Shown here: piece after piece, positions 15,213 through 60,875 of the stretch
Layout of the letters: the number at the start of each line of letters is the position of its first letter
Position numbering within the stretch: position 1 is the first letter of the stretch
Source of the DNA: Escherichia coli
GTDB taxonomy: Bacteria; Pseudomonadota; Gammaproteobacteria; Enterobacterales; Enterobacteriaceae
Strand: one strand, 5' to 3'
DNA: 64,000 bases
Assembly (NCBI RefSeq): GCF_001677475.2
Contig: NZ_CP015229.1
Notes under the pieces: model-generated
What the model was told of the DNA's origin: nothing
The model's input: the letters and a program-made list of their open reading frames with translations, nothing else
Database searches by the model: none
Position numbers and translations under genes: made by a program

Positions 15213-15240
15213 AGCATTGTTTCCTCTTTTCTGGCTCAAT

Positions 15241-17814
15241 TTATTCGCACCTTCCATGGTTCTCTAATACACTATTTGTCGATTGCTGTTGAGTGACATT
15301 GAATTCAACCCGGCAATTTTGGTGCGCATTGTTTCCCCATTTAACGGCGAGTACACCACTGTCCGGCATACCTGTCATATAGACTTGTCCGTTATCGCCG
15401 ACGATAAAGCTGTTTGCATTTTCACTGTTAAGCAGAGTGACAATGGCTCCGAAAGGTATCGCTTCTCCCGATGGTTTATCCAGCATCATTAATACACGAT
15501 TACCTATGCGAATATTAAAGTTTGCTCGCGCAATAGCGCCACGTGTTGGCGTTACGGTACGTGAGGAGAGCTCAACATCTGCATTTTCAGGTAATGCTTC
15601 AGTGTTAAGTGAAATAGTGTTTTCACGATAGGGGCTGATATAAGGAACGATCGTGTAGCCACGAAAGTCGGTGTTTACACCGGTCTGGTTACTGATATTT
15701 ACACCGCTGGCACCTGGCGCTTCAACCAGTGCAGTGGTTTCTCCCAGGGACTGGCTTAGTGTGATGCCATTGGCATGAACAACAATACCCCCATCAATAC
15801 CATAGTTCACCCGGTGCTGGTTCTGGTCATAACTGTACGCAGCATTGACGCGACCATAGGTTCCCTGATAGTCCAGGCTGGCATAACCGCCATTACCTAC
15901 ACCGTGATCCGTTTCACTTTCCTGAATATTCCAGTTGAGGTTCTGATCGTCAAGCGCAGAACCATTCAGGCCTACAGAATGACTGGTATCGCCGTGTTTA
16001 CTGGTATTCAGACTGTAGCTCGCCCAACTGTTATTCAACCAGCGATTTAATGGAATATTGATATTAAATGAGAAAATCTGATCGCTATTGTAGTACTTAT
16101 TACGCGTTGTATTATTGTCGCGGTAATTACTATTGTCGTTGGTATTACGGTTATAACTGTAATTCAGGCTGTAAGTCATGCCGCTCCAGCTATTACTGTA
16201 GCCAACGCCAACAGAACGCATTTGTCGATCGCTGTTCCAGTAATCTTCGCTAATGGCATTAAGCGATACTGAACCAGCATTCTGTCCAAGATTTTGGTTA
16301 AGCAGGAACTCCGCTCGATTACGCCGCCGTTCTGGCATGTTTTGATTATTTTCACGCCAGGTGTCGAGCGTTTCTTGTAGTGAATAATAACCCGATGTGG
16401 AATAGCGGTAGCCCGCGATAGAAACGTTAGTCCCGGTGGCGAGAATGTTTTTACTATAGCGTACCCGTACTGACTGACCGCTGGTTTTCTCTTGTTCCTG
16501 CTGTTGGGACCAGGCCTGGGCGGTATCGATAGATAAGGCGCCCATTTCACCCAGGTTTTTACCCATACCGAAAATTAATGATTGATAATGTTGCGAGAAT
16601 TGCCCACCGCCATATAAGGTAAATCCAACGGGCAGGCCATATATGGCAGTTGCTTGCGTGAAATACTCTTTATCAACACGACTGTCATAAGAGCGGTATT
16701 TCCCGCTGGTCACGCTATATTTCAGGCGGCCTTCACGTTGCAACACGGGGAGCGATGCAAAGGGAACAACCTGGTGCTGTTCACTGCCATCCGCTTCTTT
16801 AACCGTTACGTCCAGATCGCCGCTACTTCCGGTCGGATACATATCCGTGATTTCAAATGCGCCTGGCGAAACATAAGTTTGATAAATGGTATAACCATTT
16901 TGTTTAACAATAACCTGCGCATTGGTTCTGGCGATTCCGCGTACAACAGGTGCATAACCACGCATACTGTCAGGTAACATATCGTCATCAGAAGCTAGCT
17001 GCACACCGCGAAACGGAACGCTATCAAACATATCTGACGGAGAAGAGCTTTCTCCAAGCGTGAGCTGGCTCTTGAGCGAAATGATATTTCGCTGGGCATA
17101 GGTATACAGAGAATCCCAGTTGTTCTGGGTATCACTACCAAAAGTGTTACGACTCCAGGTACTGTAATTACGTAAGCGCCATGGCCCGATATTTAATCCA
17201 GGAAGGAGATTAAGATAATAGCTGTCAGAATCAGATGAATTGCTATCACGCGATTTTGTATTAGCACCGGTGAAATTGTAGTTCAGCAGTAACGCATTTA
17301 TTCCTTCATCCAGATTTTCAGGCGCCACGTATCCACGCGGTTTCGCTTCGACTGCCGCTTGAGGTATTTCCACCATTAGCTGCTGACGGTTAAAAATGAG
17401 TTTTGCCGAGGCCATCGGAATTGCCGCGAGATTGGCGCAGCCTTCATTATTGATCAGTTGCGGGAATAACTCGGTACGAACACCAAATTGCTTTAATTTT
17501 TCCACCGATATACACGGTTGCAATATGTTCTGACCCTGAAGGTCTTTCTGCATACTGAAAGTAATATCGTGTGTACCCAGCGACATTTTGTTTAGGTAAA
17601 CGTCAACACGATAGGTTCCAGGAATCTGACCGACACCCTCTTCAAAAGCGCTAAGATCTGAAATACCTGAGCCAGGGCCGTCGATTCCCAGTAATGCGGG
17701 GTTAAAATATTCGCGTGCATATGCCGATGAGGCGAGAGACAGGGCGCATTGCAGAGCAACGAAACAGGCAATTTTGTTCCGTATCATTTTCTTTTTATTG
17801 ATTCTTGAACTCAT
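15241..17814 (-). CDS. Fimbrial outer-membrane usher
   Basis: 857 aa with a signal peptide, the N-terminal FNPALLG motif, and length and composition typical of the FimD/PapC family. Confidence 0.9.
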   Translation of the reverse strand: MSSRINKKKMIRNKIACFVALQCALSLASSAYAREYFNPALLGIDGPGSGISDLSAFEEGVGQIPGTYRVDVYLNKMSLGTHDITFSMQKDLQGQNILQPCISVEKLKQFGVRTELFPQLINNEGCANLAAIPMASAKLIFNRQQLMVEIPQAAVEAKPRGYVAPENLDEGINALLLNYNFTGANTKSRDSNSSDSDSYYLNLLPGLNIGPWRLRNYSTWSRNTFGSDTQNNWDSLYTYAQRNIISLKSQLTLGESSSPSDMFDSVPFRGVQLASDDDMLPDSMRGYAPVVRGIARTNAQVIVKQNGYTIYQTYVSPGAFEITDMYPTGSSGDLDVTVKEADGSEQHQVVPFASLPVLQREGRLKYSVTSGKYRSYDSRVDKEYFTQATAIYGLPVGFTLYGGGQFSQHYQSLIFGMGKNLGEMGALSIDTAQAWSQQQEQEKTSGQSVRVRYSKNILATGTNVSIAGYRYSTSGYYSLQETLDTWRENNQNMPERRRNRAEFLLNQNLGQNAGSVSLNAISEDYWNSDRQMRSVGVGYSNSWSGMTYSLNYSYNRNTNDNSNYRDNNTTRNKYYNSDQIFSFNINIPLNRWLNNSWASYSLNTSKHGDTSHSVGLNGSALDDQNLNWNIQESETDHGVGNGGYASLDYQGTYGRVNAAYSYDQNQHRVNYGIDGGIVVHANGITLSQSLGETTALVEAPGASGVNISNQTGVNTDFRGYTIVPYISPYRENTISLNTEALPENADVELSSRTVTPTRGAIARANFNIRIGNRVLMMLDKPSGEAIPFGAIVTLLNSENANSFIVGDNGQVYMTGMPDSGVLAVKWGNNAHQNCRVEFNVTQQQSTNSVLENHGRCE

Positions 17815-17843
17815 TACACATCCTTATGCAGTTAAATGGCGTC

Positions 17844-18521
17844 TTACAAAGAAGCGTTGTGTACGTCGCCTGCTGCACCGTAATCACTGATGATTGTCCA
17901 GCTTACATTTCCTGTTGTGTTGGCTGGAATTTGAAATGTCGCACTACTCATAGGAGCAACATATGTGGCATCAGGTAATGCTTTTCCGCCAATCTTGACC
18001 TGACTGAAGTTCATATAGTAAGCAGTTGGGTTGGTGACAGTGATTTGCTGTCCGCTACGTCGCCAGGTCAAATTTTTCACGACTTGTTCTGGTAATGTGG
18101 ACGAAATCTCATGTGGTCGATAAATCAATTTAATTCGCGTTTTAATGGCAATTTGCAAGGTGTTGACATTTTCCTGCTTTTCAGTTGCAGGTATCGTTTT
18201 AATATTCATCCAGTACATCGTTTCGCGATCTGTCGGCAGATTGCCGCCAGCGCGAATAATGCGCAACGCATTTTCTTCAGTGGCGCCCAGGCGGAACAGA
18301 GGGGGGGTAATAATAAAAGGGGCTTTGGCGTTGGTTTGCGGATCTCCATCGACCCATGATTGAATAAGGTAGGAGGATTTATCCGGATTTTTCAGGTGCA
18401 GAGACGTTTCTTTTTTATCGCCATTATAAATAACTCGTGTTCCTCCAACAATGACACCCGCCTGTGCAACAGAGTTGGATAATAACAATGCAGTAGCAAG
18501 AAAATAAGTCGATAATTTCAT
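17844..18521 (-). CDS. Periplasmic fimbrial chaperone (PapD-like)
   Basis: 225 aa with a signal peptide, GGTRVIY...YLIQSW, and NALRII motifs characteristic of PapD/FimC chaperones. Confidence 0.9.
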   Translation of the reverse strand: MKLSTYFLATALLLSNSVAQAGVIVGGTRVIYNGDKKETSLHLKNPDKSSYLIQSWVDGDPQTNAKAPFIITPPLFRLGATEENALRIIRAGGNLPTDRETMYWMNIKTIPATEKQENVNTLQIAIKTRIKLIYRPHEISSTLPEQVVKNLTWRRSGQQITVTNPTAYYMNFSQVKIGGKALPDATYVAPMSSATFQIPANTTGNVSWTIISDYGAAGDVHNASL

Positions 18522-18595
18522 CTCAAAAACCTTTAAAAGGTAAAACCGAGTAACTCGGTTTTACCTGACGTAATTATATTAAAATCAGGCGTATC

Positions 18596-19129
18596 TTAGT
18601 TATACGCTAACGTAAAGTTCACAGTACCATTTGCACTACCAACCGCTATGGTATCTTCTGTAGCGATATAACGTGCAAAGAAGTCCAGGTTAGTGTCGCC
18701 AGTGCTATTGAGAGCCGTGCTATCAGATTCAGTACCGAGAGGCAGCACACTACCGGAAGAATTCATGAGCTGAATTGCAACACCTTTTGCTACACCGGTT
18801 GTACCGTAATCAGTAACTTGTAAAGCATCCTGATTGATCTGATCCGGAGTACCATCGTATTTAACAGCAACATTTTTGAGCTCATTCGGGCAATTTTTTA
18901 ATACCAGTGTAAATTTGGTATTTGCAGCAGTAGTCCCAGCCGTAGCGTTAAAAGCTGTTTTAGCAATTGTGCCTAATTTCACTGTCATTGGAGATGACAG
19001 CGTACTGTTAACTTCACAGCCTGATTCAATGATATCTCCAATAAAATTTATTTTACCATCATCTGCAGAGGCGACAGAGCTAAGACCAGCGGTTGTTACT
19101 AAAACCAGAGCGGCTAGTTTGAATTTCAT
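18596..19129 (-). CDS. Major fimbrial subunit (FimA-like)
   Basis: 177 aa. It has the signal peptide MKFKLAALVLVTTAGLSSVASA, the Cys pair (C...NC), and the C-terminus NFTLAYN. It is the first gene of the operon. Confidence 0.85.
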   Translation of the reverse strand: MKFKLAALVLVTTAGLSSVASADDGKINFIGDIIESGCEVNSTLSSPMTVKLGTIAKTAFNATAGTTAANTKFTLVLKNCPNELKNVAVKYDGTPDQINQDALQVTDYGTTGVAKGVAIQLMNSSGSVLPLGTESDSTALNSTGDTNLDFFARYIATEDTIAVGSANGTVNFTLAYN

Positions 19130-33731: not shown

Positions 33732-34271
33732 GTGAATAAATCAATGTTGGCGGGTATCGGGATTGGTGTCGCAGCTGCGCTGGGCGTAGCGGCAGTGGCC
33801 AGTCTGAACGTGTTTGAACGGGGCCCGCAATACGCTCAGGTTGTTTCTGCAACCCCAATCAAGGAAACGGTTAAAACACCGCGTCAGGAGTGTCGCAACG
33901 TCACAGTGACCCATCGTCGACCGGTGCAGGATGAAAATCGCATTACCGGGTCGGTGCTCGGCGCTGTTGCTGGCGGCGTGATAGGGCATCAGTTTGGTGG
34001 TGGTCGTGGTAAAGATGTCGCCACTGTTGTGGGGGCGCTGGGGGGGGGATATGCCGGTAACCAGATCCAGGGCTCTCTCCAGGAAAGCGATACTTACACG
34101 ACTACGCAACAGCGTTGTAAAACGGTGTATGACAAGTCAGAAAAAATGCTCGGTTATGATGTGACCTATAAGATTGGCGATCAGCAGGGCAAAATCCGCA
34201 TGGACCGCGATCCGGGTACGCAAATCCCACTAGATAGCAACGGGCAACTGATTTTGAATAACAAAGTATAA
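33732..34271 (+). CDS. ycfJ: Gly-rich membrane-anchored protein YcfJ (GTG start)
   Basis: 179 aa starting (M)NKSMLAGIGIGVAAALGVAAVASL. An SD AAGGAGGTG lies upstream. Confidence 0.92.
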   Translation: MNKSMLAGIGIGVAAALGVAAVASLNVFERGPQYAQVVSATPIKETVKTPRQECRNVTVTHRRPVQDENRITGSVLGAVAGGVIGHQFGGGRGKDVATVVGALGGGYAGNQIQGSLQESDTYTTTQQRCKTVYDKSEKMLGYDVTYKIGDQQGKIRMDRDPGTQIPLDSNGQLILNNKV

Positions 34272-34292
34272 CAAGGCTGTACTCTGCAATTT

Positions 34293-34328
34293 AGCCCCTC
34301 ATTCGCTCAGGCTGAGGGGCTTTTTTTG
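34293..34328 (+). terminator. Terminator after ycfJ
   Basis: agcccctca pairs with tgaggggct, followed by T7. Confidence 0.75.
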
Positions 34329-34332: not shown

Positions 34333-34965
34333 TTATTTCACCAGTTCGGGCCATAAACGCAAAGTCGTTCCGGCAATCTGCATCAGTTTTTCCAGCGATG
34401 CACCTTCGCGTGCGCTGATCGACATCCCCTGAATAATACAATTAAGGAATTCTGCCAGATGTGTCACGTCACAGTGGGTCGGGATTTCCCCGCGCGCTTG
34501 TCGTTGACATAAAAACTGCTGCAAAGTGCGCTCTTGCATCGCATGGCGTGATTTCAACGTATTGGCGATATCTCCTGAATCCGGGGAGAGGGTGGTGCAG
34601 TTGTTGATCATGAAGCAGCCTGCCGGGGTGTCTTTGCTGGTAAAGCAGTTGGCGATGGCAGCAAAATAGTCAGCCAGCGCAGACTCCACGCTTTTCTCTT
34701 CACAAAACAGCTGTGCTTCATGCTTAGCGGCAAAACGATCGATATAGCGGTCGAGTACGGCGCGGAATAACCCCTCTTTGTTGGTAAATTCCGCGTATAG
34801 CGTGGGCGCTTTGGCTCCGGTCGCTTCGACGAGGTCCGCAAGAGAAGTCGCTTCATAACCATGCTGCCAGAACAATTTCATGGCCTTATCAAGCGCGGCA
34901 TCCCTGTCGAACACTTTTGGGCGGCCACGGCTTTTTTTTACACATTGTGTTGAGTCAGTTGCCAT
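34333..34965 (-). CDS. comR: TetR-family repressor ComR (YcfQ)
   Basis: Start at MATDSTQCVKKSRGRPKVFDRDAALDKAMKLFWQHGYEATSL (210 aa). Confidence 0.93.
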   Translation of the reverse strand: MATDSTQCVKKSRGRPKVFDRDAALDKAMKLFWQHGYEATSLADLVEATGAKAPTLYAEFTNKEGLFRAVLDRYIDRFAAKHEAQLFCEEKSVESALADYFAAIANCFTSKDTPAGCFMINNCTTLSPDSGDIANTLKSRHAMQERTLQQFLCQRQARGEIPTHCDVTHLAEFLNCIIQGMSISAREGASLEKLMQIAGTTLRLWPELVK

Positions 34966-35120: not shown

Positions 35121-35138
35121 ATGTGATCCAGATCACAT
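35121..35138. promoter_or_regulatory. Perfect inverted repeat in the comR-bhsA spacer; candidate ComR operator
   Basis: atgtgatc-ca-gatcacat: 8-bp arms with a 2-bp spacer, about 70 bp upstream of bhsA. Confidence 0.5.
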
Positions 35139-35205: not shown

Positions 35206-35463
35206 ATGAAAAACGTAAAAACCCTCATCGCTGCGGCGATTTTAAGCTCCATGTCATTTGCCAGCTTTGCGGCTGTCGAAGTTCAGTCAACGCCAGAAGG
35301 CCAACAAAAAGTCGGTACTATCAGTGCTAACGCGGGGACAAATCTGGGATCGCTGGAAGAGTAGCTGGCGCAAAAAGCGGATGAGATGGGCGCAAAATCT
35401 TTCCGTATTACTTCTGTAACCGGTCCGAATACCCTCCATGGAACAGCAGTAATTTATAAATAA
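35206..35463 (+). pseudogene. bhsA: bhsA (ycfR) interrupted by an in-frame amber codon at codon 53
   Basis: Manual translation gives MKNVKTLIAAAILSSMSFASFAAVEVQSTPEGQQKVGTISANAGTNLGSLEE, then TAG (35362-35364), then LAQKADEMGAKSFRITSVTGPNTLHGTAVIYK and a stop. I recall Gln (CAG) at this codon in K-12. Confidence 0.85.
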
Positions 35464-35502
35464 GCATTAACCCTCATTAATGCCTGCTACTGCTGATTTT
35501 TT

Positions 35503-35535
35503 CCCCGCGACATGCCGTGTCGCGGGGATTTTTTT
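35503..35535 (+). terminator. Terminator after bhsA
   Basis: ccccgcgaca (tgccg) tgtcgcgggg followed by a T-run. Confidence 0.8.
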
Positions 35536-35544
35536 ATCCGGGCT

Positions 35545-36507
35545 TTACAGAGTTTGTGGGCTCACTTGATGACGGCGGACATCCACCGGCATCCCGGAAC
35601 GGACATCCATGACATGTTGCATCACTTCAGCGTCAGTTTGTGCTGCATCTTTAAATGATTGCATTGCGCTATTCAGCGTAATTGGCAGCAGCTGCGGATC
35701 GTCATCAATCTTCTCTGACAGCGGCTGATGTACTTCAACCAGACGCGCACCGTTTGGTTCGGCAGAGACTTTAATCGGGGTGTTGATGATATTTACTTTG
35801 GTACCTGGGGTGACCTGGCTAAAGAGTGTTTTGATATCGTCATCCCGCAGACGAATACAGCCAGAACTTACCCGCATGCCAATGCCGAAATCGGCGTTCG
35901 TACCGTGAAGCAAATAAACGCCGCCATAGGCCGCCAGGCGAATCGCATGATGGCCCATTGGGTTATCCGGTCCAGCCGGAACTACCGCAGGCAACTCAAT
36001 TCCCTGTGCCTTATACCGCGCGCGGATGTTTGCCGTTGGCGTCCAGGTTGGGTTTGCACGTTTGTCTGAAACGGTGGTCACCATTGTCGGTGTCAGCGTG
36101 TCACCACCCAACTGACCAATGCCGATGGGATACACGGTTACCGAATTTTTACCCGGCGGGTAGTAATAGAGACGCAGCTCCGCAATGTTGATCACAATGC
36201 CTTCGCGCGGCGCGTCTGGAAGTAGGGTTTGCAACGGGATCGTTAACACGCTACCCGCGCGCGGTACGTAAGGATCAACGCCGGGGTTAGCCTGTAACAG
36301 AGCGAGAAAGCCGACGTTATATTTTTTGGCGATGGCTTCCAGAGAACCACCGTCATTTTCCACCACATGAAATTTGTTTTCACCAACCAGACGACTGCCC
36401 GCTGGTGGCAGCGGCCAGGTGTTGGCTTTTGCCGGTAGCGCCAGCGCCACGGCAGCGGCGAACGTAAAAAACGTTAGCCAGCGAGAAAAACGCGTTTTGA
36501 TCATCAC
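35545..36507 (-). CDS. ldtC: L,D-transpeptidase LdtC (YcfS)
   Basis: 320 aa starting MMIKTRFSRWLTFFTFAAAVALALPAKA, with a LysM domain and the YkuD domain motif SSGCIRL. Confidence 0.95.
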   Translation of the reverse strand: MMIKTRFSRWLTFFTFAAAVALALPAKANTWPLPPAGSRLVGENKFHVVENDGGSLEAIAKKYNVGFLALLQANPGVDPYVPRAGSVLTIPLQTLLPDAPREGIVINIAELRLYYYPPGKNSVTVYPIGIGQLGGDTLTPTMVTTVSDKRANPTWTPTANIRARYKAQGIELPAVVPAGPDNPMGHHAIRLAAYGGVYLLHGTNADFGIGMRVSSGCIRLRDDDIKTLFSQVTPGTKVNIINTPIKVSAEPNGARLVEVHQPLSEKIDDDPQLLPITLNSAMQSFKDAAQTDAEVMQHVMDVRSGMPVDVRRHQVSPQTL

Positions 36508-36650: not shown

Positions 36651-39600
36651 TTAAGCGATCGCGTTCTCTTCCAGTTCACGCATAAACTGGCGTACCCATT
36701 CGATACGCGTTTTCCGCTCACTCAAATCCTGAATAAATTTCAGACGCGTCGGACCATCAAGGCGGTAATGCTGCGGCTGTTTTTGCAGCAAACCAATCAA
36801 CCAGGCCGGATTAACGTGATTCTTCTCGGCAAATTCGATCACGCCGCCTTTCTCATTACCTTCCAGCTTCTTGATCCCCAGTTTCTGCGCTTGCTGGCGC
36901 AGACGGGCAATATCCAGCAGGGTACGCGCCGGATCCGGCAGCAAGCCGAAGCGATCGATAAGCTCGACTTTGATCTCTTCCAGTTCGTTTTCCGTTTTGG
37001 CGCTGGCAATACGTTTATAGAACGACAAACGCGTATTCACGTCAGGAATGAAATCATCTGGCAATAGCGACGGCATCCGCAGCTCGACTTCTGTTTGCTG
37101 GCTGGTGAGATCTTCCAGCGACGGCTCGCGTCCGGCTTTCAGCGCATCGACGGCGTTTTCCAGCAACTCCATATACAGCGAGAAACCGATGGTTTCCATT
37201 GAGCCGCTTTGTTCTTCGCCAAGCAGTTCACCCGCGCCGCGGATCTCCAGATCGTGCGTTGCCAGCGCAAAACCTGCACCGAGATCTTCCAGCGAGGCAA
37301 TCGCTTCAAGACGTTTTTGTGCATCGGTAGTCATCGCTTTTGGATGCGGCGTCAGCAGCCATGCATATGCCTGATGATGTGAACGTCCGACGCGACCGCG
37401 CAACTGGTGCAGCTGCGCCAGACCGAAGTGATCCGCGCGTTCAATGATAATGGTGTTGGCTGTCGGGATGTCGATCCCGGTTTCGATTATGGTGGTACAA
37501 ACCAGCACGTTGAAACGTTGATGATGGAAATCATTCATCACCCGTTCCAGTTCGCGCTCACGCATCTGCCCGTGACCGATGGCAATCCGTGCTTCAGGCA
37601 CCAGTTCTGCCAGCCGTTCGGCAGCTTTCTGGATGTTTTCCACATCATTGTAGAGATAATAAACCTGCCCCCCGCGCAAAATTTCACGCAGGATCGCCTC
37701 CCGGACCACCAGACTGTCATACTCACGGACGAAGGTTTTAACTGCCAGACGACGGGCGGGCGGCGTGGCGATAATCGACAGGTCACGCATTCCGCTCATA
37801 GCCATATTCAGCGTACGAGGGATCGGCGTTGCGGTAAGCGTCAGAATATCCACGTTCGCGCGCATCGCTTTAATGCGCTCTTTATGACGCACCCCGAAGC
37901 GGTGTTCTTCATCGACAATCAGCAGACCTAAATCTTTAAACTTGACGTCATTTTGCAGCAGTTTGTGCGTACCGATCAGAATATCGATTTTCCCTTCCGC
38001 CACTTCCGCAAGGATTTGCGTCTGCTCTTTGGCGCTGCGGAAACGGGAGATCATTTCGATACGTACCGGCCAGTTGGCGAAACGGTCGCGGAAGTTGTCG
38101 TAATGCTGCTGCGCGAGAAGGGTGGTAGGCACCAGCACCGCCACCTGCTTGTGGTTATCTACCGCCAGGAAAGCGGCGCGCATCGCCACTTCTGTTTTAC
38201 CAAAGCCAACATCGCCGCACACCAGACGATCCATTGCCAGCGGCTGGCTCATGTCGCTAAGCACCGCATTAATGGCCTGCGCCTGATCCGGCGTGGTTTC
38301 AAACGGGAAGCTGTCGCAGAACAACTGATACTGCTCACGATCGTGTTTAAACGCGAAGCCCTCTTTGGCGGCGCGTTGCGCGTAGATATCCAGCAATTCT
38401 GCCGCCACATCACGCACTTTTTCCGCCGCTTTCTGCCGCGCGCGTGACCACGCATCGCCGCCAAGTTTATGCAGCGGGGCATTTTCTTCCGCGCCACCTG
38501 CGTAACGGCTAATCAGATGCAGTGACGACACCGGAACATACAGTTTGGCGTCGTTGGCATAGGTGAGCATCAAGTACTCGCCAGTAATGCCGCCAGCTTC
38601 CAGCGTGGTCATTCCGGCATAGCGCCCGACGCCGTGCTCCAGATGGACCACCGGCTGACCAATATGCAGCTCCGCGAGGTTGCGGATCAGTGTATCGGGG
38701 TTGATGGTGCGGCGAGAGTCCTGACGACGGCGGGCAACGCGTTCACCGAGCAGATCGCTTTCGCAAATCAGCGCCAGGTTACGCACCGTATCGACAAAAC
38801 CATGTTCGGCAGCGCCAATCATCAGATAACGCCCACGGTCGCTGGCTTCATCAAGACGCATAATGCGTTGCGGAGCAATTTTAATTCGTGCGAGCAGTTC
38901 ACCCAGCGCTTCACGGCGACCTTCACTTTCTACCGAGAATACCACCGGACCGTCGAAAGTCTCGAGGAACTTACGCAGCGTATCCAGCGGCGCTTTTTGT
39001 TGTGCCTGAACGGCCAGGTCTGGCAGTTTCTGGAAACCTAAATTGGAATTCGCGGCTTTTGTCGGTAAATGTTCAGTTTTTAGTTGCACTCGGGGCCAGT
39101 TTTTCAGCTCTGAGAAGAGCTCGTCCACCCGCAGCCAGAGCGATTGTGGTGGCAACAGTGGGCGCATCGGATCGACGCCGCGATTCTCAAAACGCGCCAG
39201 CGTGTCAGCCTGGAAACGTTCGGCACTGTTTTCCAGATCGCCAGTATTCACCAGCAAGGTATTGGCAGGGAAATAACTGAACAGCGGCGGCAGTGGTTCG
39301 CTGAAGAACAATGGCTGCCAGTACTCGATCCCGGCAGGTAATGTGCCTTTACTCACTTGCTGGTAAATATGTTCCGGATCGCGCTTCACTTCGAAGGTAT
39401 CGCGCCACTGGCTGCGGAACAGTTCAATTGCCGCTTTATCGGTCGGAAATTCGTGTGCGGGCAGCAGATTGATCGCTTCTACTTCCTCCAGCGTGCGCTG
39501 GCTGTCGACGTCAAACACCCGCAGGCTGTCGATTTCATCATCAAAGAAATCAAGACGATAAGGCAGCTCACTCCCCATCGGGAAGAGATCCAGCAACGCG

Positions 39601-47915: not shown

Positions 47916-48962
47916 TTAACGTCCTGCTTTCAGCTTCTGATAATACTCTTCATAAATGCTGCTGGCTGCGCCAACGTCATTCTGCCATTCACCATTTTTA
48001 ATGGTTTCAGCATCCGGGTAGAGCGTTTTATCGTTCGCCACTTCCGGGCTTAACAGCTTACGCGCCGCAAGGTTTGGCGTTGGATAACCGATAGTTTCGG
48101 CAACCTGTTTTGCCACATCCGGGCGCAGCAGGAAGTTGATCAGTTTCAGCGCGCCTTCTTTGTTTTTGGCATTCGCCGGAATTGCCAGGCTGTCCATCCA
48201 GAAAATGCCGCCTTCTTTCGGCCACACGACGTCAATTGGTGTACCCGCCTGGCGTGCAACGAAAGCAGAACCGTTCCAGATCATGCCGAGGTTAACTTCG
48301 CCTTCCATGTACGGGTTAGCCGGGTTATCGGAGTTAAACGCTGCGACGTTTGGCATCAGTTTTTTCAGCTCGTTATATGCAGCTTCAATCTCTTTCGGAT
48401 CGGTGGTGTTACCGGAATAGCCCAGCTTACGCAGCGCCATCTGGAACACTTCACGGGCATCGTCGGTCAGCAGCAGGCTGCCTTTGTACTCAGGCTTCCA
48501 CAGATCGGCCCAGCTGGTAACGGATTTCGGATCCACCGCATCACCGTTAACGCCAATCGCCGTCGCACCCCAGATATACGGAATGGAGTAGTCGTTATTC
48601 GGGTCAAAAGGCTTGTTGAGCATGTCTGGATCGAGATTGCTGAAGTTCGTTAACTTCGACTTGTCGATCTTCTGGATCATCCCTTCTTTACGCATTTTAT
48701 CGACGTAATAGGTTGAAGGAACCACCAGGTCATAGGCACCGTCTTTGTACGTTTTCAGCTTGGCATACATGGTTTCGTTCGACTCGTAAGTCGAATAGAT
48801 AACCTTAATACCGGTTTCTTTGGTGAACTGTTCAAGCAGTCCTGGCGGCACGTACTCGGTCCAGTTGTAGAAATACAGCGTGTTGTTGTCATCGGCGTGA
48901 GCGGCGCTCATGCCCAGTGCCAGAGCACCCGCCGCGAGCAGGTGGCGTGACCATTTTTTCAT
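47916..48962 (-). CDS. potD: Spermidine/putrescine ABC transporter periplasmic binding protein
   Basis: 348-aa ORF starting MKKWSRHLLAAGALALGMSAAHADDNNTLYFYNW. Confidence 0.97.
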   Translation of the reverse strand: MKKWSRHLLAAGALALGMSAAHADDNNTLYFYNWTEYVPPGLLEQFTKETGIKVIYSTYESNETMYAKLKTYKDGAYDLVVPSTYYVDKMRKEGMIQKIDKSKLTNFSNLDPDMLNKPFDPNNDYSIPYIWGATAIGVNGDAVDPKSVTSWADLWKPEYKGSLLLTDDAREVFQMALRKLGYSGNTTDPKEIEAAYNELKKLMPNVAAFNSDNPANPYMEGEVNLGMIWNGSAFVARQAGTPIDVVWPKEGGIFWMDSLAIPANAKNKEGALKLINFLLRPDVAKQVAETIGYPTPNLAARKLLSPEVANDKTLYPDAETIKNGEWQNDVGAASSIYEEYYQKLKAGR

Positions 48963-49753
48963 TTAACGTCCCCTGTGTTACCTTTCGTTTTATCACGAGC
49001 AATAAGCTGGCTGGCAATAACCATCACCAGCGACAGCACCAGTAATATGGTTGCCAGCGCGTTAACTTCCGGCGATACGCCGACTTTGACCATCGAATAA
49101 ATTTTTAACGGCAGAATTTCATAACTTGGTCCGGTGACGAACGAAGAAACTACCACATCGTCCATCGACAGGGTAAAGCTTAACACCCAGCCCGCCGCTA
49201 CCGCTGGCATTGCCAGTGGCAGAATGATTTTTCGCAGAATGGTAAATTCGCTGGCACCGAGATCTTTCGCCGCTTCCAGCATTCGCACGTCAAAACCTTT
49301 CAGGCGCGAATACACTGTCACCACCACAAATGGCAGGCAGAAGGTGATATGCGAGAACAGCAGCGACCAGAAGCCAAGCTGAATACCCAGCAGCATAAAC
49401 AGCACCAGCAGCGAAATCGCCATCACGATATCTGGTGACATCATCACTACAAACAGCATTCCGCTAACGAACGGCTTACCACGAAAGCGATAACGGTACA
49501 GTGCAACTGCCGTCAGTGAACCGATAAGCGTAGCAAACGTCGCCGAAAACACCGCCATTGTTAGTGAATGCTGCGCTGCCTGTAACAGGCTGTCGTTGTT
49601 CATCAGCAGGCTATACCATTTGGTGGTAAAACCCTGCCAGTTGATGCCAAAGCGCGAGCTGTTAAAGGAGTTCACAATCAAAATAATGATTGGGATATAC
49701 AGGTACGCGTAGATAGCGGTCATAAAACCGCCGCGAAGCAGTCGACCGATCAT
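48959..49753 (-). CDS. potC: Spermidine/putrescine ABC transporter permease PotC
   Basis: 264-aa ORF starting MIGRLLRGGFMTAIYAYLYIPIIILIVNSF, full length. Confidence 0.97.
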   Translation of the reverse strand: MIGRLLRGGFMTAIYAYLYIPIIILIVNSFNSSRFGINWQGFTTKWYSLLMNNDSLLQAAQHSLTMAVFSATFATLIGSLTAVALYRYRFRGKPFVSGMLFVVMMSPDIVMAISLLVLFMLLGIQLGFWSLLFSHITFCLPFVVVTVYSRLKGFDVRMLEAAKDLGASEFTILRKIILPLAMPAVAAGWVLSFTLSMDDVVVSSFVTGPSYEILPLKIYSMVKVGVSPEVNALATILLVLSLVMVIASQLIARDKTKGNTGDVK

Positions 49754-49776
49754 TCGAGTTCCACCTTCTTATTCAT
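49750..49776 (-). pseudogene. potB: 3'-terminal remnant of potB at the prophage junction (attL core lies here or just upstream)
   Basis: The minus-strand frame ends ...(M)NKKVELE then TGA, overlapping the potC ATG. This matches the PotB C-terminus as I recall it (...SRLLNKKVELE). The frame is closed upstream by TAA at 49873-49875, so only the tail of potB is present. Confidence 0.6.
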
Positions 49777-49819
49777 AAGGCGGGACACTTTCAGGATTTT
49801 GAATTTATTCAATTTTTTC

Positions 49820-49856
49820 CTTTCTCCAAAATCTCTCCAAAACGTTTCCCCAAAAC
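49820..49856. repeat. Three direct repeats in the phage arm next to attL; candidate Int arm-type sites
   Basis: Plus strand reads tctccaaaa (49823-49831), tctccaaaa (49834-49842) and ttccccaaaa (49846-49855). Confidence 0.4.
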
Positions 49857-49919
49857 TAGGCCACGCATTTTACAACACTTTTTTCCTGAGATGGTGACGG
49901 ATATTCCATATGGTGTTTG

Positions 49920-51038
49920 TCAAATAACCAACTTAACCCATTCCTGACCTCGAGTATCGTTATAGCGATCGGTGGTTGCCTGGACTTTATGTCCTAGTAA
50001 TGTTTTTGTATCGATACCCTGTGCACGGTACAGCCGTTCTGATAGAGAGCGTTGTTCATGAAATGTTGGCGGAGTTTTTCCTGCTGGTGGAATTATCCCA
50101 GCCAGATCCCGTGCTTTGGCAAAGTAGTCGCTCAGGTTGTCTTTACTCATCGACTTCGGTTGTTTCTGGTGCCGACTATGGATTAGATATGGACTTAATA
50201 TTCTGTCTCGGCACCCATCAATAACTTCTTTTAACGTTATCCCAATGGCATCACAGCGTAGTGTAAGCGGTAACGCCAGACGCATTCCGGTTTTTCCTTG
50301 GGTGATATGCAAGTGTTCGTTCCACACATCTGAAAAACGCATGTGGCAAATGTCATCACGGCGCTGACCAGTAACAATCGCAAGAAGCATTGCGTTACGG
50401 ATAAAGTGTTTTTCAGGCGTTGCGTTGTAAATTTTTTGCCAGTCTTCCAGGGTGAGTCTGGCTCTGGTTACTTTAGGGATTGGTTTACGGGTAGCCTCCG
50501 GAGGATTCCATCCAGGAGGAACTTCCCCTGCATGCTGTGCTTCTTTATAAATATCAAGCCATAATCCGCGATTTACTCTCGCTGTGCTGACCATGTCTTT
50601 ATCCAGCCACTCATCCAGTATTAATGCAAAGTCTCTTACTTCCAGTTCTTTCAATGGGTGGTTTCCCAGACGGGAAACCAGGAATGCAGCCATTCGCGCT
50701 TTTTCTTTGTGGGTTGTAGCTGCAATATCTCCATTTTTCAGGCGCGCGTCCTGTATTTTCAGATATCGATCAACCCATGCCTTTAATCTGATACCCCGAC
50801 GTTTTGTTGCTGATGGACTTTCATCAATTTTGCGCATGAAATATTCAGCTTCTGCTGCAGCTATTCGCTGATTGGCTGTGGAAGCGATTTTTTCTGCCTT
50901 ACCTTTGTCTGTTCCGAGTCCGTGAAATTTTCCAGTCACAGGATTTTTATACTGGTAGTAAACTCTGCCAGTTCTGCGATCAAACTTTTCGTAAAGACCG
51001 GCTACGTCAGTGCTGTTTTTTCGTGGCCTCGGTGACAT
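49920..51038 (-). CDS. int: Tyrosine integrase (lambda Int family)
   Basis: 372 aa. It has an N-terminal arm-binding-type segment (YYQYKNPVTGKFHGLG) and C-terminal catalytic residues (...HEQRSL..., GHKVQATTDRYND with the Tyr). Confidence 0.93.
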   Translation of the reverse strand: MSPRPRKNSTDVAGLYEKFDRRTGRVYYQYKNPVTGKFHGLGTDKGKAEKIASTANQRIAAAEAEYFMRKIDESPSATKRRGIRLKAWVDRYLKIQDARLKNGDIAATTHKEKARMAAFLVSRLGNHPLKELEVRDFALILDEWLDKDMVSTARVNRGLWLDIYKEAQHAGEVPPGWNPPEATRKPIPKVTRARLTLEDWQKIYNATPEKHFIRNAMLLAIVTGQRRDDICHMRFSDVWNEHLHITQGKTGMRLALPLTLRCDAIGITLKEVIDGCRDRILSPYLIHSRHQKQPKSMSKDNLSDYFAKARDLAGIIPPAGKTPPTFHEQRSLSERLYRAQGIDTKTLLGHKVQATTDRYNDTRGQEWVKLVI

Positions 51039-51276
51039 GAGTTAAAATCTCCTTCAGTGCATCATCATCGCCAGTATGAATTTCCGGCGCAATTCCCGTT
51101 TCACCAGGCCCAACAAATACTGCTCGGCGATCTATCAGCCAACGCCCACGAATTTTTTGTGGTCTTGGAACGATGTATCCTAGTTTTCCGTATTTCACCA
51201 GGGTAGTGTTTGTTATTGGGAGACTGAACCGTTTTGGTTTCCACTCGTCGAGCGTTATCAGGTACTGTTCGCTCAT
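51007..51276 (-). CDS. xis: Excisionase-like protein
   Basis: 89 aa starting at MSEQYLITLDEWKPKRFS...RWLIDRRAV, a lambda-Xis-like pattern. It overlaps the int start. An SD GGAG lies upstream. Confidence 0.7.
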   Translation of the reverse strand: MSEQYLITLDEWKPKRFSLPITNTTLVKYGKLGYIVPRPQKIRGRWLIDRRAVFVGPGETGIAPEIHTGDDDALKEILTHVTEATKKQH

Positions 51277-51337
51277 GGCTATCACTCCGGAACGCGCCAG
51301 TTGCAGAATATCAACGACAACTGGCGACGGTTGAACA

Positions 51338-53809
51338 TTAAAAATCAGCCTGATTCGGGATCAGTTTTTGCCAGATAGCTGAAACGTATTTTGCCTGGTG
51401 ACGAGCGTCATCAAGTGCATTATGGCGCTCACCTTCGAATGGGATAGCAGTTCTGGCATCGAAGTCTATGGTTTTCCCCAGCTCAACGATTGTGCGTACA
51501 TCGCGATCGTTGTAGTAACGCCACGGGCAGGGGATCCCCTGCCGTTCGTATGAACGGCGCAAAATCGTGTTGTCGAAGTTGGCTCCATTTCCCCAGACCT
51601 GAACAAAAAACTCACCGGAGTTTTCGGCGATAAATTCCCGCAATTGCAGTAGTGCATCATCTAACGGGATTTCATCGGTCATAATGGCAGACTGCGCTTC
51701 ACGTGATTGCTTCAGCCACCATTTAATGACGTCACGATCAATGACTCCGCCAGCAGTATCCAGATCGATGGTCTTGCTAAATTCCGGTCCCATATCACCG
51801 GTTTGCGGATCGAAAAATATTGCACCTATTGAGATAATCGGGGCATCAGGATTTTTTCCCATGGTTTCAAGGTCGATCATCAGATGAATCCCCGCTCTGC
51901 TGGTGGATGTGAGATTATGATGACTGTTCATCTTAATTAAGGGATCTGTCGCCTCGCCAGTTTTATTATCGCTGGCGTGATGCTGATTGCCGCCAGGGTT
52001 CTCCTTGTGTGGATGTTCAGCGCCTTCCATTTCCTCCGGATCATTTTCCTGAACTTCAGGCTGATTCTCTTCATCGAATATTTCCTGGTATGTTGCGTCA
52101 CCCATCACCGCGCCACAATCAGGGCAGTTGCCGCCACCGCTCTGACCGCAGGCTGTGCAGACTTTTTCCGGTTCCTGTTGCGCTACTGGCTCAGGTTGTT
52201 TCGTTTCTGGCTCGTTTTGTTGCGTATTTGGGCTGTTTTGTTCCGCTTTCTGGTCGTTCTGTTCCGTTTCTTGCTGGTTCTGGTTCACAGAATCGCGGGT
52301 TTCAATCCCCTTCACCCATTTCGGATCATTCGGATCGCTAATCCCTGCAACAAATTCACCACGTGATACTGCAAGCAGTTCATCGGCGTCATGCTGGCTG
52401 ATATTGGCTGCCTGCATAATTTTGTTTACTTCGTCAGCGGTAACTTTTACCGGCCCTGGTTGTGCGGTCGTGTCAGATGCACCAGTATTTTGTTGTGAAC
52501 CTGAGTATGTACCGTTTTTGCGGGCGAAATATTCTTCTTTCGTGATTTCAGTAGCCCCGGCAGCCAGTGCCTTATCCAGACCAGAAAGTTTGTTTGCGCG
52601 ACCGTATTTTTCGCCATCCTTGTCGGTGAAGAGGAAGTAGAATGGCCCCTCACGCTCTACAGATGGTTCGACTTCCACTTTGCATTCGGTTTTTTCGTTG
52701 TCCGGAATTGCCGTTTCCACTGCATCAGTTTCTGGTACTGGCGACGAGAGAGTATCAGTTGCGCTCTGATTTCTTCCTTCATCTTCAAACACGCCCTTTG
52801 TAGTCAGGTATTCAGTAATGTATTTGTTCAGTGCCACAGGGTCTTTGTGAATGTCGATCGGACGTTCACGAACAAGGCCAAAAATAGTCTGGCGGTCGTA
52901 GCGAAGGGCATCAGGCTGTTTGCGCATTGATGCCGAGATACGCTTCCAGTCTTCGCGGTCGTTGTCGATAACTTCATTTTTTGCCCAGCGATGGATGCTG
53001 CCATCAATGTTTCCGACATCCACATCACCAGGCCAGAGAGCGTAGGCCAGTTCGTCATCCAGTGTTTTCCATGTCTGCTTGTATTCGCGATGAGTGGCAG
53101 CAATGACCGGGCTGATTTTTCCTGTTGAATTTTCAGTGTGCTGTTGATTGGCTCTGGCGCGGGCGAGATCAACAACAGACGTGTATTTTCCGGTTTCCTT
53201 GCGTTCACCTTCGCGACGTTTTTTCCAGATGCGCATCTCTGCCTGAATTTCGGGCCATTTGGCACCAGGCTTACATTTATGCTTAACCCACCCGATGGCA
53301 TGCAGCTTAAGCTCCGGATACATGGCGTTAACTTCTGGCATTTTCATCAACGCTTCAACGATATGTCCGTCGAATGTTGCCATGTCTTCCTGCAACAATT
53401 CCTGCGCGCTAATCACCATATCAACGGTGATGTTTTCACATGTACCGAACTTAACCAGGACCGCGTTCTGTACTTCAAGGGACAGCTTGTCAAAATTGAC
53501 GTTAATAGGATCGGATTCTGGTTCGACCGGAATAAAGGAAGCGGATTCCTCATCCCAGCGGTTTTCCTGCATATATTCGGTATCCCAGGAGTCGATAGCA
53601 GGGCGGGGCATGCCGGGTTTATCTTCGCAGACAAGAAATTTATAAGCGCAGTCCTGAGCAGCAGGATATTGCTCCAGGAATTGCCAGGTAAATTTGGCAC
53701 GGGCGCGGCGTTCATCACCGGCTTCAATGGCAGTGGCTACAGCAACTGCGCCCTCTTCTTTTATTGCCTGTTCGTCCGGAATGGCGGCGCAAATAAAGAC
53801 TTTACTCAT
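51338..53809 (-). CDS. 823-aa multidomain protein: YdfE-like N-terminal region, low-complexity linker, zinc ribbon, C-terminal DEDDh 3'-5' exonuclease domain
   Basis: The C-terminus carries exonuclease motifs MIDLETMG, WGNGANFD and HNALDDARHQ. A CTACGQSGGGNCPDCG ribbon lies at about 52108-52162. The N-terminus MSKVFICAAIPDE... resembles my recollection of K-12 Qin YdfE. Confidence 0.8.
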   Translation of the reverse strand: MSKVFICAAIPDEQAIKEEGAVAVATAIEAGDERRARAKFTWQFLEQYPAAQDCAYKFLVCEDKPGMPRPAIDSWDTEYMQENRWDEESASFIPVEPESDPINVNFDKLSLEVQNAVLVKFGTCENITVDMVISAQELLQEDMATFDGHIVEALMKMPEVNAMYPELKLHAIGWVKHKCKPGAKWPEIQAEMRIWKKRREGERKETGKYTSVVDLARARANQQHTENSTGKISPVIAATHREYKQTWKTLDDELAYALWPGDVDVGNIDGSIHRWAKNEVIDNDREDWKRISASMRKQPDALRYDRQTIFGLVRERPIDIHKDPVALNKYITEYLTTKGVFEDEGRNQSATDTLSSPVPETDAVETAIPDNEKTECKVEVEPSVEREGPFYFLFTDKDGEKYGRANKLSGLDKALAAGATEITKEEYFARKNGTYSGSQQNTGASDTTAQPGPVKVTADEVNKIMQAANISQHDADELLAVSRGEFVAGISDPNDPKWVKGIETRDSVNQNQQETEQNDQKAEQNSPNTQQNEPETKQPEPVAQQEPEKVCTACGQSGGGNCPDCGAVMGDATYQEIFDEENQPEVQENDPEEMEGAEHPHKENPGGNQHHASDNKTGEATDPLIKMNSHHNLTSTSRAGIHLMIDLETMGKNPDAPIISIGAIFFDPQTGDMGPEFSKTIDLDTAGGVIDRDVIKWWLKQSREAQSAIMTDEIPLDDALLQLREFIAENSGEFFVQVWGNGANFDNTILRRSYERQGIPCPWRYYNDRDVRTIVELGKTIDFDARTAIPFEGERHNALDDARHQAKYVSAIWQKLIPNQADF

Positions 53810-53902
53810 TTTGTTTTAACCTCATTACAGATTTAAGGGTGAACAAATCCCTGCCATTGCTGGCATATAAAAATGAAACCGGATATTAATTACGGTGCTG
53901 TT

Positions 53903-54094
53903 TTAAAGTCCTGCCGGTATTTCGTTATTATTAGTGTGAGTAGTTTTATCTACCGGATAACAGTTACCGGGAATTTTTTGTTCTGCTGCTGCAGCCATGC
54001 ATTCTTTCATTGAACCGTATAAGCCAGTCACCAGCTCAAGAGATTCGCCGGAAACAAGATAAACTGTCAGAACGAGTGCAAATGTTGTATTCAT
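53903..54094 (-). CDS. ydfD: YdfD-like small membrane (lysis-associated) protein
   Basis: 63 aa starting MNTTFALVLTVYLVSGESLELVTG. It has an ATGA overlap with the dicB homologue, as in the Qin dicBF operon. Confidence 0.75.
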   Translation of the reverse strand: MNTTFALVLTVYLVSGESLELVTGLYGSMKECMAAAAEQKIPGNCYPVDKTTHTNNNEIPAGL

Positions 54095-54279
54095 TGTTTA
54101 TATCCTTTTTGCAGCAGGTCCAGACGAGCCAGCATTGAAGGAATGCATACTTCATTTAACAGGTCCTGCTCGAGTTTTCTCTGCTTAATGGCGTCTTCAA
54201 TAAATGTTTTGTCTCCAGTGATAACGCCAATTTCGAAACGAAGTTCAGACGTGCTGGCATTACATGATAACTTTTCCAT
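54091..54279 (-). CDS. dicB: DicB-like cell-division inhibitor
   Basis: 62 aa from the internal start MEKLSCNASTSELRFEIGVITGDKTFIEDAIKQRKLEQDLLNEVCIPSMLARLDLLQKGYKQ. It shares FEIGV, EDAI and SMLARL blocks with K-12 DicB. An SD GAGGA lies upstream. Confidence 0.8.
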   Translation of the reverse strand: MEKLSCNASTSELRFEIGVITGDKTFIEDAIKQRKLEQDLLNEVCIPSMLARLDLLQKGYKQ

Positions 54280-54449
54280 TATCGCGTCCTCAACAATGAA
54301 TTTTGTGATGCGGTGCCTGGTGCCTCCAGGTGACGTTAACCAGTTAACAATTAACGCAGGATACAGAGAATCCACCCATAACACTGTTTTTGGTTTTTAC
54401 TGTTCCGCGTGCGCTGAGCCGCATTCACCGCATCACAAAATTCACTTTT

Positions 54450-54508
54450 AAAAAAGGGCGGCAGAGCAGTCACGGAGTAAAACTGATACCGCCAAATGTC
54501 ACCAGAAT
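54450..54508 (-). ncRNA. dicF: DicF small RNA (ftsZ-targeting)
   Basis: The minus strand reads attctggtgacatttggcggtatcagttttactccgtgactgctctgccgcccTTTTTT. This is nearly identical to the K-12 DicF sequence I recall, including the terminator hairpin. It lies 170 nt upstream of dicB, as in Qin. Confidence 0.88.
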
Positions 54509-54821
54509 ATTGATAACAGAGGGCGTTGTAGCGGGGTTGTCACTTAAGCGTATGGTCAACCTGACAACCCGGTGTCCTCAACGGGGAAAGGCGTCCCTCC
54601 CACCCCCGCCATACTTACCGCCGCGCCATTTCGCGGGTCGCCACAACCGGAAGCGCACGGTCGAATTAAATTTAACGACACCGTGCAGTGAGACGAACTT
54701 CGCCGTGCGCTTTCGTGTTGTGTGCCTGCTTTTAACCACGTCAGGCGAGGTGGTTTCCGTCATTCCCCAACGACAGGAAATCTGTATAATCTGGGTATCC
54801 CCAACGATCCAAGGAAATCAT

Positions 54822-54923
54822 ATGACAGAGCAAAGAGCACAAGCAGGTGATGGTGTATGGACCGGGATGATATTCTTGACAGAATTTTTTATGGCTATTT
54901 TCTTGAGCAACTGTTTTCTGTAG
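54822..54923 (+). CDS. Candidate 33-aa upstream ORF with a hydrophobic C-terminus (speculative)
   Basis: MTEQRAQAGDGVWTGMIFLTEFFMAIFLSNCFL. A strong SD AAGGAA lies 5 nt upstream, and TATAAT (54785-54790) about 32 nt upstream. It overlaps the start of the 148-aa ORF in another frame. Confidence 0.3.
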   Translation: MTEQRAQAGDGVWTGMIFLTEFFMAIFLSNCFL

Positions 54924-55303
54924 CGACTGGTCGTCTCGATAAACTTCTCTCAGTAGTGAGTATTATCCTCGGTTCATCTGTCATTGGCGGATTCATTCCG
55001 GAAATTTCTGGCGTTTTTATTGTTGTGATCGCAACCGTCCAAACGATTTATGGATTCGGACAAAAGTCAGGTAATACCATGAGAAAATCCGCAGAATATT
55101 TGCAGCTTTTTGATGATGCAGAAAAATATTCTGATTCGGAATTGAAAATTCAGTTAAAAACTCTGGAAAAAACAGATGATCATATTTGGTCATCACTTAA
55201 AGATATTGCGATCTTAAAAACACAGATCAAAATAGGCGTCTCCATCGAACAACAAGAGAAGTTGCCCACAAAATCCAAATTGATGCGATTTCTTTGTGGT
55301 TAG
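54857..55303 (+). CDS. 148-aa two-transmembrane-helix protein of unknown function (moron, opposite to the dicBF operon)
   Basis: A long ORF in AT-rich DNA, where stop codons should be frequent. An SD AGGTGA lies upstream. Two adjacent hydrophobic helices (LLSVVSIILGSSVIGGF and ISGVFIVVIATVQTIYGF) are followed by a charged helical tail of about 80 aa. Confidence 0.7.
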   Translation: MDRDDILDRIFYGYFLEQLFSVATGRLDKLLSVVSIILGSSVIGGFIPEISGVFIVVIATVQTIYGFGQKSGNTMRKSAEYLQLFDDAEKYSDSELKIQLKTLEKTDDHIWSSLKDIAILKTQIKIGVSIEQQEKLPTKSKLMRFLCG

Positions 55304-55392
55304 GAATATCCAGATTGTTAAAGAGCATGCCGGAGGTTTATCCGTGTCCGGCGCACGCACTTCATCTGCGGAGAACTACTTGAGCTCATTGG

Positions 55393-55608
55393 TCAGTAGT
55401 TTTCAATCACTCGCGAAACGTTTAATGCCGCGCTTTTTGCCAGAGTGGTAATATCCTGCTCCGCTGACACCAGTTCTTTAGAGAGGCGCTCTTTGTAGTC
55501 AGCGGCCTGCTTCAGGTCATTAATGGCGCGTATCTTTCCGCACATCCATTCGTAAATTTCATCCTCGGTATAGTCTGGTGCGATGATGACGGGTTCTCGT
55601 TTCTGCAT
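55393..55608 (-). CDS. ydfC: YdfC-like protein
   Basis: 71-aa ORF starting MQKREPVIIAPDYTEDEIYEW, in the position of ydfC in the Qin dicBF operon. Confidence 0.65.
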   Translation of the reverse strand: MQKREPVIIAPDYTEDEIYEWMCGKIRAINDLKQAADYKERLSKELVSAEQDITTLAKSAALNVSRVIENY

Positions 55609-55637
55609 ACTGATTCCTCGCGGTGCCGCTTCGCTTA

Positions 55638-55766
55638 TCAGCCGTTAGATTTTGCCGAACTGGAAAGCGCCTGTTTAAACTCACTGAAGCTGAGAGCTTC
55701 TTCGCCTTCGGCAAGGTCTTCGAAGTATTCTTCGTAAGCCTTTTCCATGATTGCGTCGAAATCCAT
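55638..55766 (-). CDS. ydfB: YdfB-like 42-aa protein
   Basis: Manual translation gives MDFDAIMEKAYEEYFEDLAEGEEALSFSEFKQALSSSAKSNG. It is below the ORF-track size cutoff and replaces the implausible basic 70-aa ORF 55559..55771. Confidence 0.7.
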   Translation of the reverse strand: MDFDAIMEKAYEEYFEDLAEGEEALSFSEFKQALSSSAKSNG

Positions 55767-55767
55767 A

Positions 55768-55923
55768 TCACTCACCTGAATTTCTTTCCAGCCAGCGACG
55801 AGCGCCAGTTTCGGTTTTAAACGTTTTACTTTTGGTATACGTCATCGCGGTGAATGTGCCGTCCTGGTTGGGAAACACGCCGTACACCAGAGATTCGTTG
55901 TTGCCAAGATCGATAGTATCCAT
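55768..55923 (-). CDS. ydfA: YdfA/YdaF-like (DUF1391) 51-aa protein
   Basis: Internal start MDTIDLGNNESLVYGVFPNQDGTFTAMTYTKSKTFKTETGARRWLERNSGE, with an SD GGGGAAATGAGG upstream. Confidence 0.7.
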   Translation of the reverse strand: MDTIDLGNNESLVYGVFPNQDGTFTAMTYTKSKTFKTETGARRWLERNSGE

Positions 55924-60874: not shown

Positions 60875-60875
60875 C

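Follow-up and report, generated by a model that had tools for sequence, protein, structure and literature searches.

A described precedent concerns yahO, a DUF1471 paralogue of bhsA, in which premature stops have been gained and reverted repeatedly in Salmonella Dublin (PMC12403712). As with bhsA in this study, a small periplasmic or envelope stress protein of the DUF1471 family was there lost to a stop codon in a natural lineage, but the two cases differ in gene and in species, and the reversion seen in yahO was not observed for bhsA. No report of a natural bhsA nonsense allele was found in the literature searched (a searchable library), nor does any paper there cite the accession of the assembly, and amber-bearing sequences are already present in the public databases, where they are labelled partial BhsA.

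The bhsA gene is regulated by ComR and inducible by copper, and its protein affects the permeability of the outer membrane to copper (PMC7558416). Many stresses likewise induce the gene, and its deletion has been found to make cells more sensitive to stress and to alter their attachment and aggregation (summarised in PMC4092069). The DUF1471 fold runs in the order strand 1, short helix, strand 2, long helix, strand 3, strand 4 (PMC4092069).

Within the window (the whole 64,000-nucleotide stretch of Escherichia coli DNA that was analysed), the bhsA frame is interrupted at codon 53 by an in-frame amber codon. The allele, bhsA(Gln53amber), is very likely a genuine loss of function of recent date that a spontaneous C>T change brought about on the haplotype of its own clade, and every clade member that was sampled carries it. 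A lineage-specific nonsense pseudogene is an entirely familiar kind of event, and this one is ordinary but cleanly documented.

The bhsA Locus and Its Reading Frame

The initial annotation took the interrupted gene for bhsA, an identification borne out by the locus itself, which is flanked by the divergent comR and the convergent ldtC as in K-12 and is nearly identical to K-12 at the DNA level (Table 1). The gene order ycfJ, comR, bhsA, ldtC, mfd is the same as in K-12 MG1655 and other E. coli. When translated, the frame from its ATG reads MKNVKTLIAAAILSSMSFASFAAVEVQSTPEGQQKVGTISANAGTNLGSLEE up to the amber codon and LAQKADEMGAKSFRITSVTGPNTLHGTAVIYK from there to the regular TAA at 35461-35463. 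Alignment to K-12 MG1655 gives T in the window for C at 35362, so that the single C-to-T change from CAG to TAG that had been proposed from the sequence is confirmed; the K-12 gene (WP_000800153.1, "multiple stress resistance protein BhsA") has CAG at codon 53 where the window has TAG. Only two differences from K-12 are present in the 258 bp of the CDS, the second being a synonymous ACA>ACT at 35319, and at the amino acid level codon 53 is the sole change from K-12 BhsA, with the other 84 codons specifying the same residues.

The frame had also been described as otherwise intact to its normal stop, with its terminator kept, and this agrees with the translation and the terminator scan; codons 54-85 and the terminator are identical to those of K-12 in the alignment. 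Two further differences from K-12 lie in the 5' leader of bhsA, at 35174 and 35180, and are unrelated to the stop because both are found in the intact sister lineage described below. The N-terminal leader MKNVKTLIAAAILSSMSFASFA is a putative Sec signal peptide, which we take it to be from its sequence pattern and the K-12 annotation. No RNA family overlapping the amber site was found with Rfam, which gave only sub-threshold matches on the terminator hairpin.

A perfect 16-bp palindrome (TGTGATCCAGATCACA) is present at 35122-35137 in the comR-bhsA intergenic region, approximately 70 bp upstream of the bhsA start, and is kept in K-12. It fits the pattern TGTGA-N6-TCACA of CRP sites, and could be a candidate CRP site or, equally, a ComR operator.

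Table 1. Features of the bhsA locus, with positions numbered from the first letter of the window.
Feature	Coordinates	Strand	Evidence and remarks
bhsA (ycfR/comC) frame, now a nonsense pseudogene	35206..35463	+	85 codons + TAA; translation, K-12 alignment, PF07338 match of the read-through product
In-frame amber TAG, codon 53	35362..35364	+	C>T at 35362; Gln53 in intact orthologues
Still-translated part, 52 codons	35206..35361	+	Hydrophobic N-terminal leader MKNVKTLIAAAILSSMSFASFA, then 30 residues; entered in the ORF list as a 52-aa ORF, 35206..35364
Codons 54-85, now untranslated	35365..35460	+	Specify most of the long helix, together with strands 3 and 4, in the DUF1471 fold
Intrinsic terminator 3' of bhsA, in the gap to ldtC	35502..35538	+	Terminator scan: 12-pair G+C-rich hairpin, then a T-run, at 35502-35528
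comR (ycfQ), divergent, intact, 210-aa product	34333..34965	-	ORF list; K-12 annotation; TetR-family copper-responsive repressor gene
ldtC, convergent with bhsA, intact	35545..36507	-	ORF list

Predicted Consequence for the BhsA Product

The protein that would result from read-through matches PF07338 (YdgH/BhsA/McbA-like, DUF1471; YhcN family) over residues 34-85 with a score of 72.6 bits, the gathering score being 27, whereas the 52-aa product has no match to PF07338. The conserved C-terminal core is thus missing, as had been anticipated when the stop was noticed. Of the 52 residues that make up the DUF1471 domain, 33 are missing from the encoded product, which falls outside the family, and the DNA is a bhsA gene remnant in which the untranslated tail (25-33 residues) still matches the C-terminal half of the PF07338 model.

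The solved homologues 2noc and 2ma4 align over BhsA residues 29-85, and the alignment places Q53 at the predicted start of the long helix (...SLEEQLAQKADEMGA...). Because the stop stands at this point, the product would end before most of the long helix and would have neither C-terminal beta strand, and the fragment would be unable to fold. By the alignment and the fold description, the complete fold, a four-stranded sheet with the long helix packed on it, is not encoded.

Transcription of bhsA from its ComR-controlled promoter would be expected to go on, with ribosomes terminating at the UAG and releasing a 52-residue precursor. This precursor would then be exported and its leader trimmed, leaving approximately 30 residues that would presumably be degraded, and the strain would be effectively BhsA-null save for trace natural read-through. 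Re-initiation at Met61 would yield a 25-residue cytoplasmic peptide without a leader. No neighbouring gene should be affected and no polarity is expected, because bhsA is monocistronic and followed by a terminator of its own, and ldtC runs towards it.

Distribution of the Allele and Conservation of the Site

The exact 52-aa product was found in 122 index blocks of the public assembly collection, or around 80 contigs, whose sources name E. coli BhsA, and the same TAG base is present in at least 35 independent assemblies of the window's clade. Two loci with TAG show 0 differences from the window, L005 in 10,159 bp (4 further similar places) and L119 in 12,190 bp (17 further similar places), and L122, also with TAG, has 1 SNP in 8,447 bp (23 further similar places). 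The loci L012/L013 have TAG and an Mfd protein identical to that of the window (9 further places). As a marker of the clade, Mfd was also taken in the 1148-aa form that follows the NCBI start call, the 1164-aa start call having undercounted the clade. Carriers of the clade include the assemblies GCA_002516285.1 and GCA_033745465.1 and the read set SRR15047267. Locus L011 was considered as a carrier and rejected, its contig ending within codon 53 and reading CA there. The clade therefore has a lineage-specific nonsense pseudogene, with a stop where relatives have a sense codon and with concordance across assemblies.

Among species-representative bhsA loci of the Enterobacteriaceae, an intact 85-codon ORF was found in 80 of 80. 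Codon 53 specifies Gln in 79 of these (CAG in 52, CAA in 27) and Glu in one, and the amber codon occupies a strongly conserved position.

Of the 5,424 complete E. coli genomes in which the locus is present, not one has the exact TAG-bearing 71-mer, and the exact TAG 34-mer was absent from the GTDB species representatives and from JGI metagenome contigs. A single ComR allele is found in 21,366 blocks, at approximately 14 contigs per block read, compared with the 122 blocks of the amber product at one contig per block read. Scaled crudely via ComR, these figures suggest that the amber allele occurs in about 1 in several thousand assemblies, which fits its absence from the complete genomes. Annotation pipelines either drop bhsA in such strains or call it "partial," with the result that pan-genome and presence/absence analyses mis-score the gene.

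Lineage and Timing

The window is, on its sequence identity, E. coli proper, being approximately 98% identical to E. coli-type sequence and 91-95% identical to E. ruysiae, E. whittamii and unnamed Escherichia species. The best of the 5,426 complete E. coli genomes compared is 98.0% identical over the 24 kb at 25-49 kb of the window, and since no complete genome exceeds this value over 24 kb, the clade is poorly represented among finished genomes. For the shared part of the window at 1-24 kb, the best complete-genome identity is 98.7%, and the top matches are B1/A-type strains.

A sister lineage was recovered using the window's exact FhuE as a handle. Over 12,190 bp, 17 SNPs separate its member L120 (with 4 similar places) from the window and 11 separate its member L121 (99.9% identity), and both share with the window 35174A, 35180C, 35319T and the bases at 35541 and 35551. 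The assemblies GCA_027552025.1 and GCA_037967675.1 belong to this sister lineage. In L120 and L121 position 35362 is C and the 85-aa BhsA is intact, and between the nearest other differences, at 34582 and 35611, the C>T is the sole change between the window and the sister lineage. Because a sister of only ~0.1% divergence has CAG on the same haplotype, the C>T arose in place and recently; this is the outcome of the comparison with close relatives by which the initial annotation had thought the mutation might be dated.

Some of the SNPs separating the window from its sister lineage are clustered, with four within 70 bp at 34223-34293 (the 3' end of ycfJ) and, between L120 and the window, three within 10 bp in mfd at 37461-37470. 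These clusters suggest short tracts of recombination more than a steady, clock-like divergence, in which case the SNP counts overstate the age of the split between window and sister.

The loci L115 and L118, from the assemblies GCA_040939905.1 and GCA_043512075.1, share the fimbrial island described below and are 99.75-99.8% identical to the window over 20.6 kb. Carriage of TAG across the clade refers to the sampled members, and L115 and L118 lie outside the sample typed for bhsA. Two other proteins were tried as lineage markers and rejected, LdtC being identical across lineages, and the window's ComR allele being the common E. coli allele of 21,366 blocks, with no close relative among the ten places listed.

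Two records met in these comparisons call for some caution. The first (L016, CP169086.1) has the title Enterobacter hormaechei B17-3, yet its bhsA region is 98% identical to the window and its BhsA 100%, which suggests a mislabelled or mixed record. The second (L015, CP178306.1) is the E. coli species representative ECGI0523, whose alignment has >130 gap openings in 9.6 kb, suggesting an indel-rich assembly.

Recurrence of the Stop and Other Natural bhsA Lesions

The same TAG is also found on K-12-like haplotypes of the phylogroup A type, at L006 and L007. Over 10,159 bp, L006 differs by 1 base from the complete genome CP61_Sichuan and L007 by 1 base from K-12 C600, and in each case this base is the same C>T. 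The two carriers differ from each other exactly at 30951, 36531 and 40081, the markers that separate CP61_Sichuan and K-12 C600, both of which have CAG. Since the K-12-like carriers are each one base away from CAG genomes, and with the sister-lineage result alongside, the recurrence is taken to be independent, the Q53 amber having arisen at least twice and probably three or four times.

Five bhsA codons are one transition from a stop (Gln 27, 33, 34, 53, and 56), and four of these five transition-accessible stops are seen as natural alleles. These are Q33 CAA>TAA (ochre; 71 index blocks), Q34 CAA>TAA (ochre; 47 index blocks), Q53 CAG>TAG, which is the window's allele (122 index blocks, the largest number for any stop checked), and Q56 CAA>TAA (ochre; 84 index blocks, on at least three backgrounds). 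The exact-protein look-up had a minimum of 30 residues, and a Q27 stop, with its product of 26 aa, lies outside it.

Other lesions were also found. L108 and 17 places similar to it have a 1-bp deletion in the CCC run of bhsA codons 6-7. In three complete E. coli genomes (L114, which is NZ_CP027573.1 of strain 2013C-4081, H57 and H58), a 22-bp tandem duplication (GGCGCAAAAAGCGGATGAGATG) lies between two GGCGCAAAA direct repeats, and RefSeq gives a "frameshifted; internal stop" pseudogene. The duplication is the only bhsA lesion found by the 71-mer search of 5,424 complete E. coli genomes. The loci with the Q33, Q34 and Q56 stops or the 1-bp deletion are L098-L103, L108 and L123-L131. Like the Q53 amber, all of these other lesions truncate or frameshift the 85-codon gene, and the three ochres are likewise C>T changes at Gln codons, but they differ from it in position and mechanism.

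A Dcm deamination hotspot was considered for the Q53 change and rejected, as the mutated C lies in GAGCAGCTGG, which has no CCWGG site, and inspection by eye for a templated or quasi-palindrome origin found no convincing template. The pattern of stops looks like mutational saturation of a dispensable gene, under G:C>A:T pressure and very deep sampling, and not like a hotspot.

Origin of the Allele and Alternative Explanations

The interpretation given in the initial annotation is supported, and what the analysis adds to it is the allele's presence throughout the sampled part of a small clade, its recent origin, and its place among several natural bhsA knock-outs that recur. How the stop came to be fixed is a separate matter from the lesion itself. 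It could be supposed that bhsA inactivation is positively selected in certain niches, for example on account of the increased aggregation and biofilm that deletion mutants reportedly show or of a changed permeability of the envelope to copper, so that the allele spread by a sweep and not by drift. We consider this unlikely. The deletion phenotypes (summarised in PMC4092069) speak for it, and several stop alleles are found on dozens of contigs, which implies that they have persisted long enough to expand; against this, the amber is rare on the rough scaling above (about 1 in several thousand assemblies), and the complete E. coli genomes have no TAG in 5,424, with only the 22-bp duplication in three. 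The gene is moreover intact in all 80 species representatives. The recurrence itself, with the same Q53 stop on two or more backgrounds (probably three or four), the Q56 stop on at least three, and the Q33 and Q34 stops, the 1-bp deletion and the 22-bp duplication in addition, is what convergent selection might produce, but the stops observed are at Gln codons accessible by C>T, as mutation pressure with very deep sampling predicts. The recurrence of stop alleles across E. coli is therefore best read as what frequent G:C>A:T changes leave in a gene that is dispensable, under weak constraint and very deeply sampled.

A fuller version of the adaptive explanation, in which bhsA is a recurrent target of adaptive inactivation and the Q53 amber swept the clade at about the time when the fimbrial operon difference from the sister lineage arose, seems to us a little more doubtful again. 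If it were true, the fimbrial operon and the amber would be parts of one shift in surface, adhesion or biofilm, and the Q33, Q34, Q53 and Q56 stops, the frameshift and the duplication would represent convergent evolution and not mutational noise. Deep sampling and conservation elsewhere argue against adaptive convergent loss of bhsA.

Import of the TAG by homologous recombination from another TAG-carrying E. coli is very improbable, despite the identical allele being present in phylogroup-A-like strains. In those strains all four possible pairings of alleles occur between the TAG site and the markers at 30951, 36531 and 40081, a pattern that recombination too could produce, but the window's private bases at 35319 and 35551 differ from those of the K-12-like carriers, and a transfer between these carriers and the window would for that reason need a tract of <232 bp. 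The sister lineage, on the other hand, has exactly the window's haplotype with C at 35362, and because of this one point mutation explains everything.

A recent point mutation on the clade's own haplotype could still leave bhsA functional if the amber were suppressed, by a glnV/supE-like tRNA inserting Gln or by efficient read-through of UAG. A Gln-inserting suppressor of the supE type would restore the exact wild-type protein, and the ambers suppressible by the classical laboratory supE (glnV44) are CAG>TAG changes at Gln codons as here, although the window's allele comes from a natural isolate. The stop stands in the context TAGC, and UAG followed by C is a relatively weak termination context in E. 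coli. The sequence past the stop is undecayed and identical to K-12, but this says nothing either way, given a very young allele and a gene with almost no variation in E. coli. There are no tRNA genes in the 64-kb window, its 14 kb of prophage included, glnV lying elsewhere on the chromosome, outside the window. The TAG also occurs in unrelated backgrounds, alongside ochres and frameshifts that are beyond the rescue of an amber suppressor, and we regard continued function by suppression as even less probable than import.

A sequencing or assembly artefact at 35362, the error that the initial annotation had named as fatal to its reading, has practically no likelihood, since beyond the general possibility of error nothing speaks for it and a one-off error is excluded by the same base in many independent assemblies (a concordance of assemblies, not of reads), with the T shared by independent NCBI, ENA and Logan assemblies of the clade, found also in unrelated lineages, and with C in its place in close relatives assembled likewise.

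As one more lineage-specific pseudogene in a non-essential stress gene, the recent bhsA(Gln53amber) mutation is of little weight in itself. The strains of the clade may nevertheless serve as natural BhsA-null controls for work on copper permeability, on biofilm and on chlorine or oxidative stress. That stops made by C>T recur in a gene of 85 codons indicates that public sampling now saturates the nonsense sites accessible by transition, and this saturation needs to be weighed before homoplasy is counted as selection.

Neighbouring Elements in the Window

A 6-kb chaperone-usher fimbrial operon is located at 13144-19129 on the minus strand, inserted between fabF and pabC. It contains two or three subunits with Fimbrial domains, a PapD-type chaperone, an 857-aa usher and a 346-aa probable adhesin. 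None of 5,425 complete E. coli genomes covers positions 1-24000 of the window at ≥80%, and none covers the fimbrial operon. The exact usher was found in 39 index blocks, always at the same site, and the sister lineage with intact bhsA (L120, L121) is without the operon.

At the other end of the window, a lambda-type integrase with Arm-DNA-binding and Phage_integrase domains is encoded at 49920-51038, immediately beyond potC (48959-49753), where potB/potA would be expected. After the integrase come an 823-aa protein, which has an Rv2179c-like 3'-5' exonuclease domain, and several ORFs without Pfam matches. From this gene content, the region at 49754-64000 looks like a lambdoid prophage integrated in or beside potB.
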